From the IMG/VR virus record IMGVR_UViG_3300024517_000007: a stretch of 28,097 nucleotides of DNA. The stretch is one strand, 5' to 3'. The notes under the pieces are model-generated. The model was not told the DNA's origin. It did not search any database and saw only the letters and a list, made by a program, of their open reading frames with translations. The translations under genes and the position numbers were made by a program. This document shows, piece after piece, positions 8,672 through 28,097 of this stretch. The DNA comes from a virus. Numbering within the stretch: the first letter of the stretch is position 1; the number at the start of each line of letters is the position of its first letter.

Positions 8672-9337
8672 ATGCCTATCTCTGCGCTTGCTGCAATGGG
8701 AATTATGGCGGGGGCTAGTGCTCTCGGTGCCGGAATCTCAGGTATCGGCCAAGCCCGTGCTGCCAAGAAGATGATGCTCACCGATGCCGAGAAGCGAGAG
8801 CTTGCGGATCTGGAGAAGCGTAGGCGTACCGGACAGTTGGGACTAACTGAGCAGGAACGTGGCCGCATGGAGCAGCAGTTCCTTGCCGAACAGGCAGGTG
8901 CCCAACGTGAACTGGAGGCTACGGCCCTACAGCAGGCCGCCGCCCGTGGTCTTGGTGGTGCCGTATCGGGTCGTGACATATTCCTCCAGGAGCAGGCGCA
9001 GGCGCAGGCCGAACGCGGTATGCGCCAGCAGCAGAATGTCCTAGTCCAGCAGGCAGAGGCCGCCGAGGCAGCGGCGGAGGAGGCCCGCATGCAGGCCATG
9101 CGCACCCAGCAGAAGGAAGCAGAAGCCGCACGTACGGCTGCCATCTGGGGGGCCGTTGGTGGTGCACTTGGGGCTGGTGCCCAGGGTGGAATGCAGGTCG
9201 CTGGGCAGGCGCAGGCGGCTGAAATGCAGGCCGCTCAGCTTGAAGCCCAGGCTCAGCAGACGAAGGACTTGATTCGTATGTACCAGTACAGCGGTGGTGG
9301 TCCCACCTTTGGTCGTTTCTCCACTGGAGGCTTCTGA
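8672..9337 (+). CDS. Internal virion / ejection protein candidate with an N-terminal Gly/Ala-zipper hydrophobic segment (221 aa)
   Basis: Strong SD (AAGGAGataaccacATG). The N-terminus is ISALAAMGIMAGASALGAGISGIG, followed by Q/A/E-rich helical sequence and a Gly-rich tail. Its position is equivalent to T7 gp13/gp14. Confidence 0.45.
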   Translation: MPISALAAMGIMAGASALGAGISGIGQARAAKKMMLTDAEKRELADLEKRRRTGQLGLTEQERGRMEQQFLAEQAGAQRELEATALQQAAARGLGGAVSGRDIFLQEQAQAQAERGMRQQQNVLVQQAEAAEAAAEEARMQAMRTQQKEAEAARTAAIWGAVGGALGAGAQGGMQVAGQAQAAEMQAAQLEAQAQQTKDLIRMYQYSGGGPTFGRFSTGGF

Positions 9338-11406
9338 TGGCTACACCCACTGGACGCAGGATGAACTACATAGAGCGTTACGCTCATGCGGCGGCGGCTG
9401 CATACCGTGTAGACCAGATCCGCACCACAATAGAAGCTGAACAGGATAGGGTCCAGTATTTGGACTCTCTCATTGGACAGGAACGCCAGACTCTTGCTGG
9501 GCTGCAGGATATCTTCCGCGCAGAAGACGTGGACTATTCCACCGCTGCCAAGCTTATCTCTCAGATGGAAGGAACCAAGGTTCTTATAGAAGAGACAAGG
9601 GCAGGGGCCACCGCCCGTGCTTCTGAGGCAGCCAAACTCCCTGCTGGCCTTCGTAACCCCAATTTGACTGGTGGCAACTACGCACTAGCCGCTGTGCAGG
9701 AGATCGCCGGTTCTGCTGGTATGACTCCCCAGAGGAAGAGAGCCATCCTCGAAGAGGCAACGAAGCGTGGTGTCTCTCCCGGTGACGTATCCCAACTTCG
9801 TTCCAGGCTTGATACTGTCAAGACTGTAACCGTCGGTGGCCTCACCGCCATGGAGCAAGAGGCAATCACTGAGGCCGAGAGAGCAGCACAGGAGGCCCAG
9901 GAGGCGGCATTCTTCGCTGGTCCCTCCGGTATCCGTGGTGGATTCGAGGGGATGGCCGAGGCCGACAACAGGAAGATGACTTCTTCAATGTTGAAGGAGG
10001 CCGGTCTTACAGAGCGTGCCAAGCTCCTTGAGGACTCGCAGTACGCGACTGAGGATGAGGCTCTCGACGCTGCCTTGGAGACGGTGCGCCTTACTGGTGA
10101 CCTACCTCCTGCCGGGATCGAGAGAGACATTTACGAGCGTGCACGCCAGTTGAAGGCGTATCGCAATGACCAGCGTGCGGACTTTGAGCAGGAGGTCCTT
10201 GACTCGCGTAAGCGGCTCGCCACCCTGGATAGAGAACGCTCCAAGATTGCCGATGCATATGATGACCCTCAGCAGGAATTCCTCCGTCGAGAGTTGACCG
10301 CACGTGGCTACACCTTCTACGATCGGGATTCCCCGGACGCGTGGAAGAATCAATACGTCCAATACCAGCAGTCTCCCGATTATGGGGTTTACCTCGGGGC
10401 GGCAGAACGATACAAGAAGGCCATTGAAGAAGACCGAGCCATAGAGCCTTCTACCCGCGCTGAGAACATAGTCACCTCTTACACGATGATGTTGGACAGA
10501 CGTGGCGAGTCTATGTCTGTCGACAAGATTCGTGGTCAGTTGGCTAAGGCCGGGATCAAGGGCAAGGAACAGGAGGATGCCATATCCTTCGTGATGGCCT
10601 ATTGGGAGGCTGGTGGTCCCGAGCAGGATCCGTCAATGCGTGAGATGGCGCGCAAGGATGAAGAGGCCCGCAAGAGGGAAGAGAACCTCCGCAGGCAGCG
10701 TGCAGAGGCCATGAAGCGGGAAGCTGACATCGCTCGCGACGTCACCACTCAGATGGAACGAGAGCAGGTAGCAGCCGTAGAGGACCTCCGTCGCGAACAG
10801 GCTACGATGGCCTTCCCCGCCAAGGAGTACGCCCGCCTCCGGGCCATGGGCAAGACGCCTGAGGAAGCCCGCGAGGCGGCAATGCGAGTCGCCGAGAAGG
10901 TTGAAACTGCCCCATCAGCAGCCAAGATAGTCATGAGCCCCGAATCTGTTCTTGAACGCCAGAGGCGCATAGACATCGAGCGCCCCAAGCGTGAAGCTGC
11001 TGAAATCCGGCAAATTCAATTCAAGACTGATGAGCCCGAAGGGGTTGACACTGTTGCTCCCGCTGCAACCCCTTCGGGCTCTGTTGCCAACGGCGTGATC
11101 GTTGACCCCAATGACCCCAAGCTGTCATATAGGAAGACACCAAGTGGTGACTCTTACATGGTGATGCGGGATGGGATCCCCTTCACGGCAGTCCGCAGGG
11201 ATGACCCCAGCCCACGTATGAGAAGGGCCTTCGAGTCCATCGAGAGCGTCGCTGGAGGTGGAGCCCCACTGCCTCCCTACCAGCCGCCCAAGACGCAACC
11301 CGAGGCACCGGAAGGGCCTTCCTTGCCCCCTCCCGCTCCCAAACCACCAACCCGCAAGAAGTGGAACCCGGTTACGGGCCGCATGGAAGAGGTGACCGGT
11401 GGCTGA
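9337..11406 (+). CDS. Internal core / ejection protein candidate (689 aa, highly charged helical, Pro-rich C-terminus)
   Basis: TGATG coupling to the upstream gene. Long E/R/A/K-rich stretches end in ...PLPPYQPPKTQPEAPEGPSLPPPAPKPP. Its position is equivalent to T7 gp15. Confidence 0.45.
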   Translation: MATPTGRRMNYIERYAHAAAAAYRVDQIRTTIEAEQDRVQYLDSLIGQERQTLAGLQDIFRAEDVDYSTAAKLISQMEGTKVLIEETRAGATARASEAAKLPAGLRNPNLTGGNYALAAVQEIAGSAGMTPQRKRAILEEATKRGVSPGDVSQLRSRLDTVKTVTVGGLTAMEQEAITEAERAAQEAQEAAFFAGPSGIRGGFEGMAEADNRKMTSSMLKEAGLTERAKLLEDSQYATEDEALDAALETVRLTGDLPPAGIERDIYERARQLKAYRNDQRADFEQEVLDSRKRLATLDRERSKIADAYDDPQQEFLRRELTARGYTFYDRDSPDAWKNQYVQYQQSPDYGVYLGAAERYKKAIEEDRAIEPSTRAENIVTSYTMMLDRRGESMSVDKIRGQLAKAGIKGKEQEDAISFVMAYWEAGGPEQDPSMREMARKDEEARKREENLRRQRAEAMKREADIARDVTTQMEREQVAAVEDLRREQATMAFPAKEYARLRAMGKTPEEAREAAMRVAEKVETAPSAAKIVMSPESVLERQRRIDIERPKREAAEIRQIQFKTDEPEGVDTVAPAATPSGSVANGVIVDPNDPKLSYRKTPSGDSYMVMRDGIPFTAVRRDDPSPRMRRAFESIESVAGGGAPLPPYQPPKTQPEAPEGPSLPPPAPKPPTRKKWNPVTGRMEEVTGG

Positions 11407-19561: not shown

Positions 19562-19670
19562 TATCGGCTCCCATCCTGGCGAGTTCCCTAAGCATCGTGG
19601 TCATCACGAGTGGCACCCCCACGAGAATGACCACGGCTGTTATCACGAGTTGGACGGTCGGGGGAAGCAT
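19554..19670 (-). CDS. Small membrane protein (38 aa from ATG 19670; alternative in-frame starts at 19712 and 19769)
   Basis: On the minus strand, AGGAGttcacATG precedes MLPPTVQLVITAVVILVGVPLVMTTML..., which contains one hydrophobic span. The SD+ATG is duplicated by the 42-bp tandem repeat. ATG 19769 (71 aa) has no SD. Confidence 0.4.
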   Translation of the reverse strand: MLPPTVQLVITAVVILVGVPLVMTTMLRELARMGADND

Positions 19671-19729
19671 GTGAACTCCTGTTGTAGCGAGTTGAACGGT
19701 CGGGGGAAGCATGTGAACTCCTGTTGTCG
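19646..19729. repeat. Two tandem copies of a 42-bp unit (2 mismatches), plus a partial third copy upstream in + coordinates
   Basis: Read directly. Copy 1 (19646-19687) is cgagttgGacggtcgggggaagcatgtgaactcctgttgtAg. Copy 2 (19688-19729) is cgagttgAacggtcgggggaagcatgtgaactcctgttgtCg. Confidence 0.9.
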
Positions 19730-20875: not shown

Positions 20876-22882
20876 TTAGACTCCCTGCTCATCGAGCAAT
20901 TCTTCGAGTGTTTTGATGCTTATGCCGTCGTTGTCCCCAGACTGAACGGTGGGGGCCTTGGTTCCTTTGCGGTGTCCTACGGAGGCAGGATTCACACGCC
21001 CACTTGTCACGGCTTCGTCCATAGCCTTGGTGGTGTTCACCCCTTCCAGGTGCAGCCTGCCTGGACGACACTTATCGAACACGCCTCCCGCTGTGGTGTC
21101 ATGTTCCGTTATGGGCTGCTGAACAATGTCAGACACCTCCTCATAGAAGCCACTCATGTTGTATCCCACAGTCGCCTTGAAGTCTGTAACCCCGTCCTTC
21201 TTACGCTGGGTCTCTTTGGCCTCTTTGGACATTTTGGATGAGGATCCACGCCCAGTTATGGACCTGCGGAGTGAGTTCACGTACTTCACGGACTTCCGGT
21301 CGCCGTACAGTATATCTCCACGGAGTTGTGCGTTATCCATGGCGTACACGTCGGTGAAGACCTTGTCTACGGATGACGGGATGCTCTCAGGTGAATGGAA
21401 CATGGCCCCGAGGTCTGAATAATCAGTGGGGGAGAACGCGGGATTTTTGGATACGCAGGTGGGGGTGTGCCTGCCCCCGTGATCCGAGTGGTGGGCGAAT
21501 ATATATATTATGCCTTCTTGGCCCCTTATGGCTATCCACCTATTGTTCATTACACCTCGGGTCTCCTCTTCTTTAAAGAGACCCGAGGTGTAATGCGAGT
21601 TGACACACTTCCTCGACCAATTCTTCAGGGAATTCGCCACAGTTTTATCAGACAGCACAGAATGTGAGGCACGGAAGGAAGCCACTGAGTATCCAGCGTC
21701 CATCCACTTGGATACCTGAACCTCTATGGCAGAAGCCATGGAACCAAGAACGAAGGGCCTACAGTCATCACATGAAGCCATCCAGCAGGTCAGGTGGGTG
21801 TGATTGGAATGACCAGCACCACCGTGGGACCAAGTAGTTACCAGATGGGGTGCCCTGTTACACCTGACATTGAACGCTCTCCCACGGGCAGCATGTACGG
21901 CATCAGCCAACTGCTGCTCCACATCCTTATCACTGTCGGGGTCAATATCGAGCCCCAGCCCACCAAGGAGGTGGGCAAACTTATCGATCTTGAAGTTTGC
22001 CCTGACTTCCTTCTCTGCGTGTCCTTCTATACGCCTCTTGTATTTATCCCAATGTTCATCCTCGTCATTGGACACGTCACCCTTAGGCTTCCGAGCCACG
22101 GCATTGGAATCAATGTCTTCCAGCACCTCAACGAGTTCCTTGCTGATAAACAGGCTCTTCCACGTGGCAACACTTATGTGCGTGATGCCTTCTATCGCGT
22201 TGGGGAGCGACTCATTGTCTATATCGAATCCGAACTCCTTGTACCTCCAATGCTCACTGGTGCTGAACTTGAACCCAGCGTCTATGCGTATGCTATCGGA
22301 TTTGAATACAAGTTCACCGGGGCGCTTATCGCTGGACCCGACAGGCTTGCGGAATACAACGTAGTTTTTAGCGCTCTTGCTGTTATAGGCTATGACCGAT
22401 GGGCTCATCTTCTGAGAGCGCATCCAGTCGTTGACTTCTTGCAAATCAGAACGAGTTTTAGCGTCGAACTCTATCGCCAAAAACTTCTCGTGGGACACTA
22501 TGTTTGAGTCTTCGACCCTGACTACATAGCTCCAATAAGTCTTGCCGCTCTTATTGACCTTCTCCTTAGCCCCAGGGTGATGGTGGGAATCGCCATAACA
22601 TCCGAAGTGGAACAGGTCCCCACTGACCTTATAGAACACCCCCTTGCCCTTGGGGGCATAACCGTTGTTGCTGAATGGACAACCGGCCTTTAGGTTGTTC
22701 CAACCATCGGGGTTCTTGACACAATAGGTGTCAGGATCAGCAACTATGTCTTCAACGGAGGTGGGGTTCAGTTCGCCCATAGCGCGCCCACCGAGGCGTC
22801 CTATGAGGCTGTATCTACTGAGCCCGAATCTGTTTATCTCTGAATCATTGACGTCAACAACAGGGCGTGATACACTGTCCAT
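20876..22882 (-). CDS. Large Cys/His-rich early protein (668 aa), putative replication initiator (possible HUH-type nickase and/or primase-like zinc-finger remnant)
   Basis: It is the first gene of the leftward arm, with SD GGAG 6 nt before the ATG. CPFSNNGYAPKGKGVFYKVSGDLFHFGCYGDSHHH resembles a degenerate DnaG CHC2 finger (CPFHNEKTPSFTV...FYHCFGCGAHG). The histidine cluster SHGGAGHSNHTHLTCW is of the H-x-H / three-His type seen in Rep and relaxase proteins. There is also a GFDIDNE (DxD) motif. I saw no Walker A motif and no polymerase motifs. The functional call is inference. Confidence 0.35.
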   Translation of the reverse strand: MDSVSRPVVDVNDSEINRFGLSRYSLIGRLGGRAMGELNPTSVEDIVADPDTYCVKNPDGWNNLKAGCPFSNNGYAPKGKGVFYKVSGDLFHFGCYGDSHHHPGAKEKVNKSGKTYWSYVVRVEDSNIVSHEKFLAIEFDAKTRSDLQEVNDWMRSQKMSPSVIAYNSKSAKNYVVFRKPVGSSDKRPGELVFKSDSIRIDAGFKFSTSEHWRYKEFGFDIDNESLPNAIEGITHISVATWKSLFISKELVEVLEDIDSNAVARKPKGDVSNDEDEHWDKYKRRIEGHAEKEVRANFKIDKFAHLLGGLGLDIDPDSDKDVEQQLADAVHAARGRAFNVRCNRAPHLVTTWSHGGAGHSNHTHLTCWMASCDDCRPFVLGSMASAIEVQVSKWMDAGYSVASFRASHSVLSDKTVANSLKNWSRKCVNSHYTSGLFKEEETRGVMNNRWIAIRGQEGIIYIFAHHSDHGGRHTPTCVSKNPAFSPTDYSDLGAMFHSPESIPSSVDKVFTDVYAMDNAQLRGDILYGDRKSVKYVNSLRRSITGRGSSSKMSKEAKETQRKKDGVTDFKATVGYNMSGFYEEVSDIVQQPITEHDTTAGGVFDKCRPGRLHLEGVNTTKAMDEAVTSGRVNPASVGHRKGTKAPTVQSGDNDGISIKTLEELLDEQGV
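21551..21607. repeat. Hairpin element copy A (TACACCTCGGGTCTC-N12-GAGACCCGAGGTGTA, then atgcgagTTGACACA), inside the 668-aa CDS
   Basis: Read directly. The arms at 21551-21565 and 21578-21592 are perfectly complementary and identical to those of copy B at 27628-27671. The 3' flank GAGTTGACACA is shared. The 42-nt hairpin equals 14 codons and is translated as ...YTSGLFKEEETRGV... Confidence 0.9.
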
Positions 22883-22951
22883 ATCGGACTCCAGTTAGGT
22901 GGTGGTTCGATCATAAACCCCGGTGTTGGTAGCACGCGGGGTTCACTCATA

Positions 22952-22981
22952 TTTATAACACGATAGGACACCTAACGTCAA
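22952..22981 (-). promoter_or_regulatory. Sigma70-like early promoter for the leftward arm (TTGACG-N18-TATAAA with TGn extension)
   Basis: The minus strand reads TTGACG (22981-22976), ttaggtgtcctatcgTGt, then TATAAA (22957-22952). Downstream lie a 7-bp leader hairpin (22916-22922 / 22937-22943) and the motif CCACCACCTAACTGGAGTCC (22905-22886) ending 3 nt before the ATG at 22882. Confidence 0.6.
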
Positions 22982-22998
22982 CTGTGTGAGCTGACACA
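22981..22998. promoter_or_regulatory. Operator-like palindrome ACTGTGTGAGCTGACACA (core TGTGT-gAGCTg-ACACA)
   Basis: It is nearly identical to 27671-27688 (ACTGTGTGAGTTGACACA) and lies directly upstream of the -35 of the leftward promoter. Further TGACAC/ACACAG half-site-like sequences occur at 23011-23026. Confidence 0.5.
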
Positions 22999-23056
22999 TA
23001 TCCCAAGGATTGACACCACAACACAGCAGCTTATGTGGCGCATCACACACCGGGCG

Positions 23057-23100
23057 TGGTATAATGTATTGACAAATAGGACCACCCCCTTATGGAGTCC
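23057..23100 (+). promoter_or_regulatory. Extended -10 promoter P2 (TGgTATAAT), followed by leader motif CCACCCCCTTATGGAGTCC
   Basis: TGgTATAAT lies at 23057-23065 and has no convincing -35. The motif at 23082-23100 contains the GGAG that serves as SD for ATG 23106. The architecture and spacing match P1 at 1069-1113. Confidence 0.55.
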
Positions 23101-23105
23101 ATCGG

Positions 23106-23594
23106 ATGCTTTGCCCCCATTGTGATGGGCCTACTAAGGTCGTTCTAACGGTCCCGGCCAATAAGCGCACAGATAAGCGCCATTATAGGAACCGGAAGTG
23201 CAAAGCTTGTGGCAAGGGGCTTGTGACCCTGGAACTTCCAGCCATTGAACTGCGTGAACTCGACCAGAGGGCAGGCAACCGGACACTCACCGATGGTGTG
23301 GGTGCACCACTGCCGACACGTGATAACAATATAGACCTGCTGGACATCGAATCTGAATTGGAGACCCTTCTCCGTCCGTCACTGGATGCCATCAATGAAG
23401 TGCTGACCTCCGACAAGGCTGTCTCCCGGTACAAGGCGGAGACCGCACGTTGGTTGGTCGCAGATAGAAGGGAATACAGGAGGACGCTGGCAGAACAGCA
23501 TGGAGCCCAAGAGTCTGATGATCCCTCAATCAGGGAACTTGCCCGCGTGTTGGCATTGGTCCCGGACCCCATGACCGGGACAGATGGAGAATGA
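23106..23594 (+). CDS. NrdR-type zinc-ribbon protein with a helical C-terminal domain (162 aa); candidate small terminase or DNA-binding regulator
   Basis: MLCPHCDGPTKVVLTV...YRNRKCKACGKGLVTLE follows the NrdR N-terminal ribbon pattern MxCPxC..TKV...RRRxCxxCxxxxTTxE. It is the first gene of the rightward arm, two genes upstream of the large terminase. Confidence 0.5.
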   Translation: MLCPHCDGPTKVVLTVPANKRTDKRHYRNRKCKACGKGLVTLELPAIELRELDQRAGNRTLTDGVGAPLPTRDNNIDLLDIESELETLLRPSLDAINEVLTSDKAVSRYKAETARWLVADRREYRRTLAEQHGAQESDDPSIRELARVLALVPDPMTGTDGE

Positions 23595-23824
23595 TATGCC
23601 CTGCATGCCTTGAAGATACGGCGCTGGTCCTGGAAACGAGGCAACCCTCACATTCCACGTCAAGGGCGGCCACCTGTAGACCCAAGATAAGGGACCTCTC
23701 CATAAACTTCCCGGATATGGTGTACAGGAGGAGAAGGTGTAGGGCCTGTGGGCATGTGACCCAAACTATAGAGGTTCCGCTGGAGGACTTCGATATAGCG
23801 CTCAACATGGTGCCTGCCCAGTGA
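23591..23824 (+). CDS. NrdR-type zinc-ribbon protein (77 aa), paralogous in ribbon motif to the preceding gene
   Basis: MICPACLEDTALVLETR...VYRRRRCRACGHVTQTIEV. It has an ATGA overlap upstream and a GTGA overlap with the terminase start downstream. Confidence 0.5.
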   Translation: MICPACLEDTALVLETRQPSHSTSRAATCRPKIRDLSINFPDMVYRRRRCRACGHVTQTIEVPLEDFDIALNMVPAQ

Positions 23825-27627: not shown

Positions 27628-27688
27628 TACACCTCGGGTCTCTTACATAAGAAGAAGAGACCCGAGGTGTACTGTGTGAGTTGACACA
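27628..27688. repeat. Hairpin element copy B (TACACCTCGGGTCTC-N14-GAGACCCGAGGTGTA, then the palindrome CTGTGTGAGTTGACACA)
   Basis: Read directly. The arms lie at 27628-27642 and 27657-27671, and the stem extends to 17 bp via TT/AA. It starts 6 nt after the stop of the acidic-protein gene and may act as a terminator, although no U-tract follows. TTGACA (27681-27686), N16, then CATACT (27703-27708) could be a promoter. Confidence 0.9.
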
Positions 27689-28097
27689 ATGGCATACACC
27701 AGCATACTTGGCAGGTTGAAGAAGGCATTCGGGTTTGGGGTCGCCAGACCTTCAGTTATCCCCAAGACGCGGGCATCCAAATACGTGTCCCGCTTCGGTG
27801 GGGACCCTATGAAGGAATTGAAGGCCGCCATCGAGAACAAACAGCCTGTCTCCTTCTTCTACAATGACAAGTGGCAGGAGGAAGGAACAACCGGGAAGTA
27901 CGGCCAGCGCGTCGGTAACCCGCATGCCATTTGGCGTGACAAAAACGGAACCACCTACTTGCACTTGTACGTGGATCCTCAATCAGCTTCCGCCACGGGG
28001 TCTCTCCCTGGGTGGAGAACATTCATTATTGGACGCATCCAGAATGTCTCCGTGCTTGATCTTGGCACGAGACTGTTTGGACGCCCTGTCCAATTCG
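27689..28097 (+). CDS. Standalone WYL-like domain protein, partial in the window (continues as 128-195 after circularisation; 158 aa from ATG 27689, 118 aa from ATG 27809)
   Basis: The frame is open from ATG 27689 to the window end and is absent from the ORF track only because there is no stop before the edge. PVSFFYNDK...GQRVGNPHAIWRDKNGTTYLHLYVDP...GWRTFIIGRIQNVSVLD follows the WYL-domain pattern (R-x-x-x-P, W/T-Y-L, R-x-F-x-x-x-R-I). ATG 27809 has the better SD (GGTGGGGA). Confidence 0.5.
   Translation, partial: MAYTSILGRLKKAFGFGVARPSVIPKTRASKYVSRFGGDPMKELKAAIENKQPVSFFYNDKWQEEGTTGKYGQRVGNPHAIWRDKNGTTYLHLYVDPQSASATGSLPGWRTFIIGRIQNVSVLDLGTRLFGRPVQF

Follow-up and report, generated by a model that had tools for sequence, protein, structure and literature searches.

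The window analysed here, the whole 28,097-nucleotide (nt) stretch of DNA in IMG/VR virus record IMGVR_UViG_3300024517_000007, is a single complete, circularly permuted phage genome in which positions 1-127 equal positions 27971-28097, and identical contigs of about 28 kb are held in two other assemblies. Its genes diverge from a control region of 223 base pairs (bp; 22883-23105). The leftward unit begins at 22882 with an open reading frame (ORF) of 668 amino acids (aa), p668, and continues with four small ORFs without family matches; the rightward unit starts at 23106 and encodes two NrdR-like zinc-ribbon proteins (Zn162 and Zn77), the large terminase, the portal and a 168-aa protein, after which come a WYL-like protein, structural genes and an M15 peptidase. 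The subject of this report is a palindromic 18-mer in the control region, ACTGTGTGAGCTGACACA, which an earlier note on this DNA had taken for the operator of a dimeric regulator controlling an early/late switch, together with two hairpins beside which related copies lie: hairpin A within the p668 gene and hairpin B between the 168-aa and WYL-like genes. The GC skew gave no information on the position of an origin.

A repeated 18-mer and its hairpin module

The 18-mer at 22981-22998 recurs at 27671-27688 with one mismatch, the coordinates noted earlier being exact, and both copies contain TGTGT-N6-ACACA. Other details of the earlier note were also borne out: the first copy touches the leftward -35 hexamer, overlapping TTGACG by one base, a degenerate copy follows hairpin A (Table 1), and half-site-like sequences are present at 23011-23016 (TGACAC) and 23021-23026 (ACACAG). 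When the genome was searched with up to three mismatches, the 18-mer was found exactly twice, with an expectation of 0.05, and none of 100 shuffles contained two or more matches; therefore, its recurrence is not due to chance. By itself, the hexamer TGACAC shows no genome-wide enrichment (18 occurrences against 19.9 expected), and the exact 18-mer has no match in IMG/VR. The longer motif GAGYTGACACA occurs three times, always on the plus strand, twice directly after hairpins A and B and once in the control region. Read as a 16-mer, the sequence has the dyad symmetry of an operator, pairing at seven of eight positions in the control-region copy (copy C) and at six of eight in the copy beside hairpin B (copy B); positions 6 and 11 are both G, and this constant G/G mismatch makes the dyad imperfect.

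The 16-mer TGTGTGAGCTGACACA is the 16-nt flank (hereafter the foot) of a hairpin module and lies 0-2 nt past the stem. The hairpin of the module is GC-rich and 17-22 bp long; its apical stem (CTCGGGTCTC/GAGACCCGAG) is invariant, its basal stem covaries freely, and its loop, rich in A+T, has 8-15 nt, a range of lengths that alters the phasing of the arms on B-form DNA and would be of no matter for a hairpin; a GTG triplet lies 1-4 nt 3' of the stem. Copies A and B of one genome have the same stem, as is the case in the window and likewise in contig 3300043394_000375. Basal stems are the same between copies of one genome (window A/B; L096 A/L102 B') and different between lineages, with five variants (ACACC, ACGGA, GGTAAC, GCAGACC and GATAAC) plus TATTAA in L248, all perfectly compensated, and the orientation of the loop flips between copies A and B in both complete genomes. 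RNA folding gave z-scores of -5.8 to -6.3 for the hairpins (-5.8 for hairpin B), and the control-region copy folded no better than shuffled sequence (z -0.4). Since the WYL-like ORF, whose first 41 residues are conserved in relatives, starts at ATG 27689, the 18-mer at 27671 fills the gap between hairpin B and this start codon.

The anchor copy of the module lies in the p668 gene, and the rightward operon has extra copies where gene blocks meet (past the 168-aa gene in the window; in tandem upstream of the homologue of the 344-aa protein p344 in distant relatives), with 2-4 copies per genome. Across related loci totalling approximately 812 kb, the 15-mer (at most two mismatches) was matched solely by module hairpins or at the control-region junction, and nowhere else. 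An IMG/VR scan with the 16-mer found only chance coding-sequence occurrences outside the phage family, and in this database the combination of hairpin and foot is confined to the family. Judging from these sequence comparisons, it is very probable that the 18-mer is the hairpin foot and that copy C is a solo remnant at a junction of cassette gain and loss.

Table 1. Positions in the window of the module copies, promoter-like sites and candidate binding proteins.
Feature	Coordinates	Strand	Description
Hairpin A	21548..21595		18-bp perfect stem, 12-nt loop; within the 668-aa ORF; encodes HYTSGLFKEEETRGVM
Foot, copy A, degenerate	21592..21607	+	AATGCGAGTTGACACA; coding, Cys-Val-Asn-Ser-His on the minus strand
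Solo foot, copy C	22983..22998	+	TGTGTGAGCTGACACA; no attached hairpin; the 18-mer of the earlier note spans 22981-22998 and overlaps the leftward -35 with its first base
Hairpin B	27628..27671		17-bp perfect stem TACACCTCGGGTCTCTT/AAGAGACCCGAGGTGTA, 10-nt A+T-rich loop; starts 5 nt past the 168-aa stop codon
Foot, copy B	27673..27688	+	TGTGTGAGTTGACACA; 1 nt after hairpin B; directly abuts ATG 27689 of the WYL-like gene
Leftward promoter-like site	22952..22981	-	TTGACG (22981-22976), 18-nt spacer, TGT-TATAAA (22960-22952); inside conserved box ATAGGACACCTAACGTCAA
Conserved rightward block	23010..23105	+	TTGACACCACAACACAGCAGC, TGGTATAAT (23057-23065), GACCACCCCCTTATGGAGTCC, then ATG 23106; from an alignment of the window, L072, L041, L043 and L040
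p668	20876..22882	-	668 aa; carries hairpin A; putative replication protein; candidate binder
Zn162	23106..23594	+	NrdR-like Cys4 zinc ribbon and helical C-terminal domain; candidate binder
Zn77	23591..23824	+	second NrdR-like zinc-ribbon protein; PF22811 E-value 9.8e-6, just under the gathering score; candidate binder

The control region in close relatives

The control region was compared in six contigs that share the promoter blocks, drawn from relatives of p668 and Zn162. Two blocks are conserved in the alignment, one comprising the leftward promoter and its 5' untranslated region and the other the rightward stretch 23010-23105, and the 18-mer sits between them in the sole non-conserved stretch of the control region (Table 2). 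Both promoters look like extended -10 promoters: CGTCAA at 22976-22981 reads TTGACG on the minus strand and, with TGT-TATAAA 18 nt away, makes a plausible leftward promoter by its motifs, and TGG-TATAAT is found on the rightward side. The leftward block is kept in L036, L040, L041, L043 and L072, and its box ATAGGACACCTAACGTCAA is also found in L083, L096 and L248. A third TGG-TATAAT, a TGGTATAAT-type promoter-like site at 1069-1077, lies upstream of the 344-aa gene (p344), which is taken as the capsid gene.

Table 2. Sequence or arrangement after the leftward -35 (…CTAACGnCAA), contig by contig.
Contig	Sequence or arrangement
Window	C-TGTGTGAGCTGACACA-TATCCCAAGGA-TTGACACC
L072	T-TGTGCGAGTTGACACA-TATCCCAAGGG-TTGACATC; same layout as the window
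L040	same foot, hairpin TGGTAACTCGGGTCTC…AGACCCGAGTTACCA, second foot TGTGTGGGTTCACACA, two leftward genes, four GGTGACAAGY iterons, conserved rightward block
L041	TCGTGCGAGTT joined to ACCATTCTGGTCA; right dyad arm lost
L043	TATTACCATGTGTGAATG; foot not retained
L036	another 17-bp hairpin, TGTGAACTCGTGCCAAA…TTTGGCACGAGTTCACA
L042	unrelated upstream region; no foot here

Feet in the position equivalent to copy C are found in L072 and L040. The rightward promoter is kept in L041, L043 and L042, and the leftward promoter also in L041 and L043. Because L041 and L043 each keep a different fragment of the L040 hairpin, they represent independent deletion derivatives. A repeated stem-loop stands at indel or cassette junctions between close relatives: the junctions of L040, L041, L043, window/L072 and L008 (described below) map to the module.

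These results bear on the operator proposed in the earlier note, according to which the dyad would be the duplex site of a dimeric phage regulator (e.g., Zn162 or Zn77) that would repress or activate the leftward promoter and act a second time at 27671, gating the structural genes. The dyad and its one-base overlap with the leftward -35 are real, and TGTGYGAR, the left half, stays beside the -35 in five of the six contigs. In addition, AGTT is made symmetric in two different ways, giving a centre of AGCT in copy C and of AATT in L008 B1, and an arm pair of L008 B1 has changed from T:A to C:G; as the 4-nt centre is unable to pair within the hairpin, duplex symmetry is hinted at. On the other hand, the 18-mer is not conserved together with the promoters: it lies in the variable stretch, is truncated in L041, is not kept in L043 and L042, and is missing from the control regions of the distant contigs L083 and L096, yet the promoters and Zn162 persist. 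The sites at which the foot is conserved lie inside a coding region and ahead of the capsid gene, the asymmetric G/G at positions 6 and 11 is constant, and the spacing of the arms varies between N6, N4 and N2. Moreover, a single switch at 22981 is less necessary because a second TGGTATAAT site lies upstream of the capsid gene. Thus, conservation of the motif with the promoters in relatives, which the earlier note had suggested as a check, fails at the control region and weakens the operator. What stands of the proposal is a specific repeated cis-element with plausible binders; its part as an early/late switch of the divergent promoters is not supported.

Several other features of the control region vary or recur among the contigs. 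Iteron arrays upstream of the Zn162 homologues differ per contig (L040, L036, L042, L044, L046/L047; the types listed are GGTGACAAGY x4, GTGACGG x5, AACCCTRCAC, GTTACAG and GTGGTGGGTT), and the window has no such array upstream of Zn162. The iterons change while Zn162 stays approximately 86% identical, which speaks against the operator, and the arrays appear to go with the exchanged leftward (replication-side) module rather than with Zn162. The contig L036/L037 (Ga0208543_1000022, 50.6 kb) is a head-to-tail dimer of an approximately 25.1-kb unit in which homologues of p668 and Zn162 stand together with a terminase and portal that are unrelated, a mix of genes that shows module exchange at the control region.

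Around the promoters themselves, the window at 1043-1114 has, after TGG-TATAAT, the sequence GGCCACCCCTTATGTGGAGCC, a near-copy of the GACCACCCCCTTATGGAGTCC box in the 23057-23099 region; this box, common to both rightward TGG-TATAAT sites, suggests by its sequence a shared leader element. The box ATAG(G/A)A(C/G)ACCTAACGnCAA at 22963-22981 contains the -35 hexamer and is kept even at approximately 33-36% protein identity, and L083 and L096 have a second CTAACGCAA 22 nt away. The leftward promoter may have its true regulatory site in the ATAG(G/A)A(C/G)ACCTAACGnCAA box.

The 168-aa/WYL junction and hairpin B

The junction carrying hairpin B was surveyed in approximately 38 IMG/VR relatives found via the terminase or the WYL-like protein. 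In these, the two genes are either closely spaced (0-10 nt) or separated by a 120-140-nt insert with unrelated hairpins, and in many relatives the WYL-like gene abuts or overlaps the 168-aa gene. Only L008, at 96-97% amino-acid identity, keeps TGTGTGAGTTGACACA-ATG, its copy B 16-mer being identical. The L008 hairpin occupies the same site with three stem pairs changed, all compensated, and an extra unit, AGTGCGAATTGGCACA, stands in front of the resident foot, the two units abutting without a spacer. Four relatives without p668 (L009, L010, L016 and L018; terminase approximately 75-79% identical) have composite palindromes of their own, each a hairpin with flanking short inverted repeats, and these palindromes are common to the control region upstream of the zinc-ribbon gene and the 168-aa/WYL junction.

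The position of hairpin B raises the question of a role in RNA, with the hairpins acting as attenuators, RNase III sites or 3'-end stabilizers and the foot as an accessory stem-loop. The foot at B would then form the ribosome-binding context of the WYL-like gene, and the likeness of the copies would come from copying or gene conversion. The folds are very stable, as their z-scores indicate; site B starts 5 nt past a stop codon, and its foot ends at the next ATG; the control-region hairpin of L040 comes after the stop of a leftward gene and just before the p668 promoter; and tandem modules in the distant contig L102 come after a stop codon and before a TTATAAT promoter-like site. Unrelated hairpins at the same junction in other relatives point the same way, as does the fact that loops A and B, when read in the mRNA sense, are the same in each of the two complete genomes. 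However, copy C is upstream of both promoter-like sites and would thus not be transcribed from them, and in the direction of transcription the foot precedes the hairpin at A and follows it at B. The invariance of the apical stem and foot across relatives of approximately 33% identity is not needed for an RNA in which only structure matters. In addition, no U-tract is present, the loops of 10-14 nt are long for a terminator, and the small stem of the foot is weak, and the fold of the control region does not exceed that of shuffles. Rfam gave no match for the whole window and, around hairpin A, only generic sub-threshold hairpin matches. Both the hairpin function in RNA and the ribosome-binding detail at B are, on balance, unlikely.

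Two more specific identities were examined at these sites and rejected. An intrinsic terminator would have the GC-rich stem seen here, but the U-tract is missing, the loops have 10-12 nt and not the 3-8 nt of a terminator, and a terminator scan did not list A or B. Because there is no U-tract and essential sequence follows in the same transcription unit (the C-terminal domain of p668 past A, the WYL-like gene past B), A and B are not efficient terminators. A promoter formed by the foot at B, TTGACA-16-CATACT (27681-27708), would fire inside the WYL-like ORF, which starts at 27689 and has a conserved N-terminus; a -10-like hexamer at the correct spacing from the TTGACA of the foot is found only at copy B, and the other copies have no -10.

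Conservation of the module in distant relatives

Distant relatives were obtained by scanning IMG/VR for the hairpin core and for the 16-mer. Two syntenic contigs were found, 3300032291_002325 (L083, L122) and 3300043394_000375 (L096, L102), both with 30-34% amino-acid identity in p668, terminase, portal, Zn162 and tail genes. The p668 homologues of both contain GATAACTCGGGTCTC…GAGACCCGAGTTATC-A-TGTGTGAGCTGACACA, so that the intragenic foot TGTGTGAGCTGACACA of L083 and L096 is identical at 16 of 16 positions to copy C of the window; the copy A foot of L040 is GTGTGAGTTCACACA. Two modules in tandem, which both end in TGTGTGAGCTAACACA, are likewise present in the two contigs, between the 297-aa and 344-aa homologues and upstream of the TTATAAT site, and the units of L102 are 86 nt apart. 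No foot was found at the control region of L083 or L096, where the motif occurs only in the p668 gene and upstream of the capsid gene.

At the nucleotide level, the p668 genes share only 49% identity, yet the apical stem matches at 20 of 20 positions and the foot has been kept. In translation, the left arm reads TSGL in the window versus ITRVS in L083, the frame differing because the loop lengths differ; for the same reason, a codon-threaded identity scan was unable to show the module. With the stem and foot invariant at 49% identity and the left arm read in different frames, it follows that selection acts on the DNA and not on the peptide; hairpin and flank are thus conserved at the DNA level independently of coding, as expected of single-strand initiation (ssi)-like signals. 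Hairpin A is kept in every p668 homologue whose DNA was seen, and the region over it is present in six of six aligned homologues, with no empty site found. In L248, a sixth lineage, the apical stem is unchanged, the basal stem is again a different, compensated one and the foot is missing, and L036 likewise has no foot beside its intragenic hairpin.

The gene around hairpin A yielded some further observations. In the marine Sanger scaffold L246 (GOS2248_10003419), a run of N stands where the p668 hairpin is expected, and the C-terminal half looks like a separate 220-aa gene. That p668 is a fusion of two genes split at the hairpin was rejected, as the short homologue P0022 is an N-gap artefact in a GOS scaffold. 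An unwinding element in the A+T-rich tract left of hairpin A was also rejected, since the tract corresponds to conserved Ile-Ile-Tyr-Ile-Phe codons and weakens in relatives.

A module found at indel junctions, with loops that flip between copies, could alternatively be a selfish or neutral palindromic repeat, comparable to repetitive extragenic palindromic (REP) sequences, miniature inverted-repeat transposable elements (MITE), Rickettsia palindromic elements (RPE) or the early-promoter stem-loops (PeSL) of T4-type phages, which would spread among and inside co-infecting phages and have no function beyond promoting rearrangements. The extra foot and replaced hairpin beside the resident foot in L008 would agree with this, as would the tandem duplications in L102 and L122, in which one copy is decaying (GAGATTCGAG), and the patchiness of a foot that is identical in lineages of approximately 33% identity yet missing in L036 and L248 suggests transfer. 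Nevertheless, a genome has only 2-4 copies, the intragenic hairpin keeps the same position in every p668 lineage without an empty site, and hairpin plus foot is found only in this phage family in IMG/VR. A bacterial-genome scan for hairpin and foot gave only chance matches among the 120 loci listed, with no copy of the module and no pointer to a host. Neither the many dispersed copies nor the empty sites of selfish palindromic repeats were found, and such an origin is quite unlikely.

Candidate binding proteins

No helix-turn-helix protein is detectable in the scanned genes, in agreement with the earlier note, which had named the zinc-ribbon proteins among the candidate binders. These are legitimate candidates, being NrdR-like ribbons by Pfam, PDB profile and local fold match. 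The two ribbons matched Pfam PF22811 with E-values of 1e-3 and 1e-5, five of six matches in a PDB profile search were of NrdR type, and the local fold match of the ribbon to NrdR was 2.2-2.4 Å over 46-47 residues, on a poor AlphaFold model of Zn162 (predicted local distance difference test score 61). The Zn162 and Zn77 ribbons thus resemble the DNA-binding ribbon of NrdR weakly but consistently. Zn162 has 15 relatives besides itself, and Zn77 homologues were called in L040, L041, L042 and L043.

Zn162 occupies the usual position of the small terminase subunit. In L016 (1768-2491), a 96-aa zinc-ribbon protein is followed by a separate 164-aa terminase-small-like protein (…LKAAQWVLD…), and the Zn162 homologue of L036 (6807-7511) has 234 aa with an extra C-terminal …AAKEILDRTGF… segment; given these arrangements at the small-terminase position, Zn162 may be a packaging protein and not a regulator. 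GenBank phages gave no DNA match and only approximately 26% identity in the large terminase.

The resemblance to the NrdR DNA-binding domain favours the operator. The foot was compared with known duplex sites. CRP/FNR-type sites read TGTGA-N6-TCACA with a fixed N6 spacing. The window copies match 8 of the 10 arm positions, and a CRP-type site was rejected because the spacings are N6, N4 (L040 unit 2) and N2 (L040 A). The NrdR box is a 16-bp sequence with conserved C4, A6, A8, T9, T11 and G13 and at least 63% A+T over positions 4-13, and NrdR boxes are paired, 15-16 bp apart (PMC13584703). The 16-mer has G4, G6, G8, C9, G11 and C13 with 50% A+T between, and an NrdR box was rejected. Nor is the pairing of boxes seen, since copies C and B are single, the L008 units abut and those of L102 are 86 nt apart. 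Furthermore, the NrdR residues D15 and R17, which contact C4 and G13, are replaced by an invariant T15 and P17 in Zn162. In general, the failure of the NrdR-box definition and the loss of the foot at conserved promoters make a duplex operator improbable.

The third candidate, p668, has no Pfam, PHROG, NCBIfam or PDB match. It has two close homologues among 5.8 billion proteins and 12 representative relatives among 1.84 billion proteins. Its first approximately 136 residues recur in proteins with DUF5906/Pox_D5/VapE helicase domains (D5/P4-alpha-like), residues 296-661 have a counterpart in a Prim-Pol-domain protein, and two Cys/His clusters are invariant. An HUH nuclease motif was rejected, as HSNHTH is not conserved in the homologues.

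Elsewhere in the window, the leftward region contains a 42-nt tandem direct repeat at 19624-19707 (two copies, 76% identical), and a perfect 16-bp intragenic hairpin with an 18-nt loop, whose left arm ends in GGTTGACAC, lies at 11032-11081 inside the ORF 9337-11406.

Proposed role of the module

An invariant apical stem, a covarying basal stem, a variable loop and a conserved flank fit the pattern of a protein-recognized hairpin, which is therefore favoured; in addition, the copies, being near-identical, would serve as recombination or cassette insertion-deletion joints. On this sequence evidence, it is quite possible, though slightly less likely than not, that a phage protein recognizes this family-specific module on DNA and that the module is also a recombination joint. 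In such a mechanism, a sequence-specific protein encoded by the phage would recognize the module on DNA by binding its apical stem when the hairpin is extruded or single-stranded, with the foot as an adjacent contact or a start site. The most likely binder would be p668, in replication initiation or priming; the origin would then lie within the gene of its own initiator, with a secondary cis site elsewhere, and the divergent promoters would not depend on the foot.

Recognition of the module at the DNA level by p668, for replication, can be put forward only tentatively. It is rather doubtful whether hairpin and foot could be the origin or priming signal of an undescribed family of zinc-finger replication proteins, lying in frame in its own gene and preserved as DNA even where the frame read across it differs; in that case, the late-operon copy would be a partner cis site, and the copies would be homogenized within each genome.

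Several points weigh against a replication signal recognized by p668. The function of p668, which has no match in the databases named above, is derived from weak domain sharing. The foot is not indispensable to the hairpin, given L036 and L248, and the pattern of two sites is not tied to p668 alone, as L009, L010, L016 and L018 share it without p668. A replication element at the late-operon junction of site B would be unusual. In addition, the flipped loops mean that the mRNAs of A and B carry the same loop, for which a role at the RNA level is possible, and the positional keeping of TGTGYGAR could reflect a function upstream of the promoter.

Whatever its role, the module is approximately 60 nt of DNA conserved far beyond any protein of these uncultured phages of approximately 25-28 kb, which are known only from metagenomes. 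Should p668 be the protein that recognizes it, the module would offer a way into the replication system of phages that have no annotated replication genes; should it be a recombination joint, small stem-loop cassettes that drive modular exchange would have a second example, this one outside T4-like phages. These results also imply that a palindrome beside a -35 hexamer need not be an operator: a generic operator call is replaced by a concrete, testable module sited at the breakpoints of cassette gain and loss.

Comparison with known systems

Origins inside the gene of the initiator itself occur in lambda O, P2 A and phiX174 A, and P4 has, besides ori, a second cis site, crr, several kb away. 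The anchor copy inside a putative replication gene, with a second cis site several kb away, can be likened to P4 ori/crr. In ssiA of the IncQ plasmid RSF1010, the hairpin spans nt 7-27, priming begins in a GTG triplet a few nt 3' of the hairpin, and ssiA and ssiB are bound by the primase RepB' (PMC8567376). Both these signals and the module consist of a hairpin with a short conserved flank, the GTG of the module lying 1-4 nt 3' of its stem. However, ssiA and ssiB lie on complementary strands in one oriV, whereas the feet of the module are all on one strand and its copies 6 kb apart, and ssi signals have a plasmid-specific primase, whereas p668 is, by its sequence, only a putative initiator or primase.

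Rickettsia palindromic elements insert in frame into genes, and REP-like repeats are palindromic. The module is similar to both as a palindromic repeat that is intergenic as well as translated in frame, and it differs from them in its very low copy number, its restriction to one phage family and its fixed position in a gene across deep divergence. Palindromic operators, CRP sites and NrdR boxes resemble the foot as 16-bp imperfect palindromes with TGTG/CACA arms, here beside a -35 and near NrdR-like genes; unlike those sites, the foot is not positionally conserved with promoters and its arm spacing is variable.

The PeSL of T4-type phages, stem-loops that combine a terminator with a promoter and by which modules are shuffled, are small repeated motifs at the borders of variable cassettes that serve as points of exchange and of indels between close relatives (PMC4122927, PMC2839356). 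PeSL are numerous, intergenic and supplied with a functional early promoter; the module has 2-4 copies, one of them in a conserved ORF, and the TTGACA of its foot is accompanied by a -10 only at copy B, so that neither a functional early promoter nor many intergenic copies were found. Similarly to PeSL, the breakpoints in L041, L043, window/L072 and L008 lie within or at the module.

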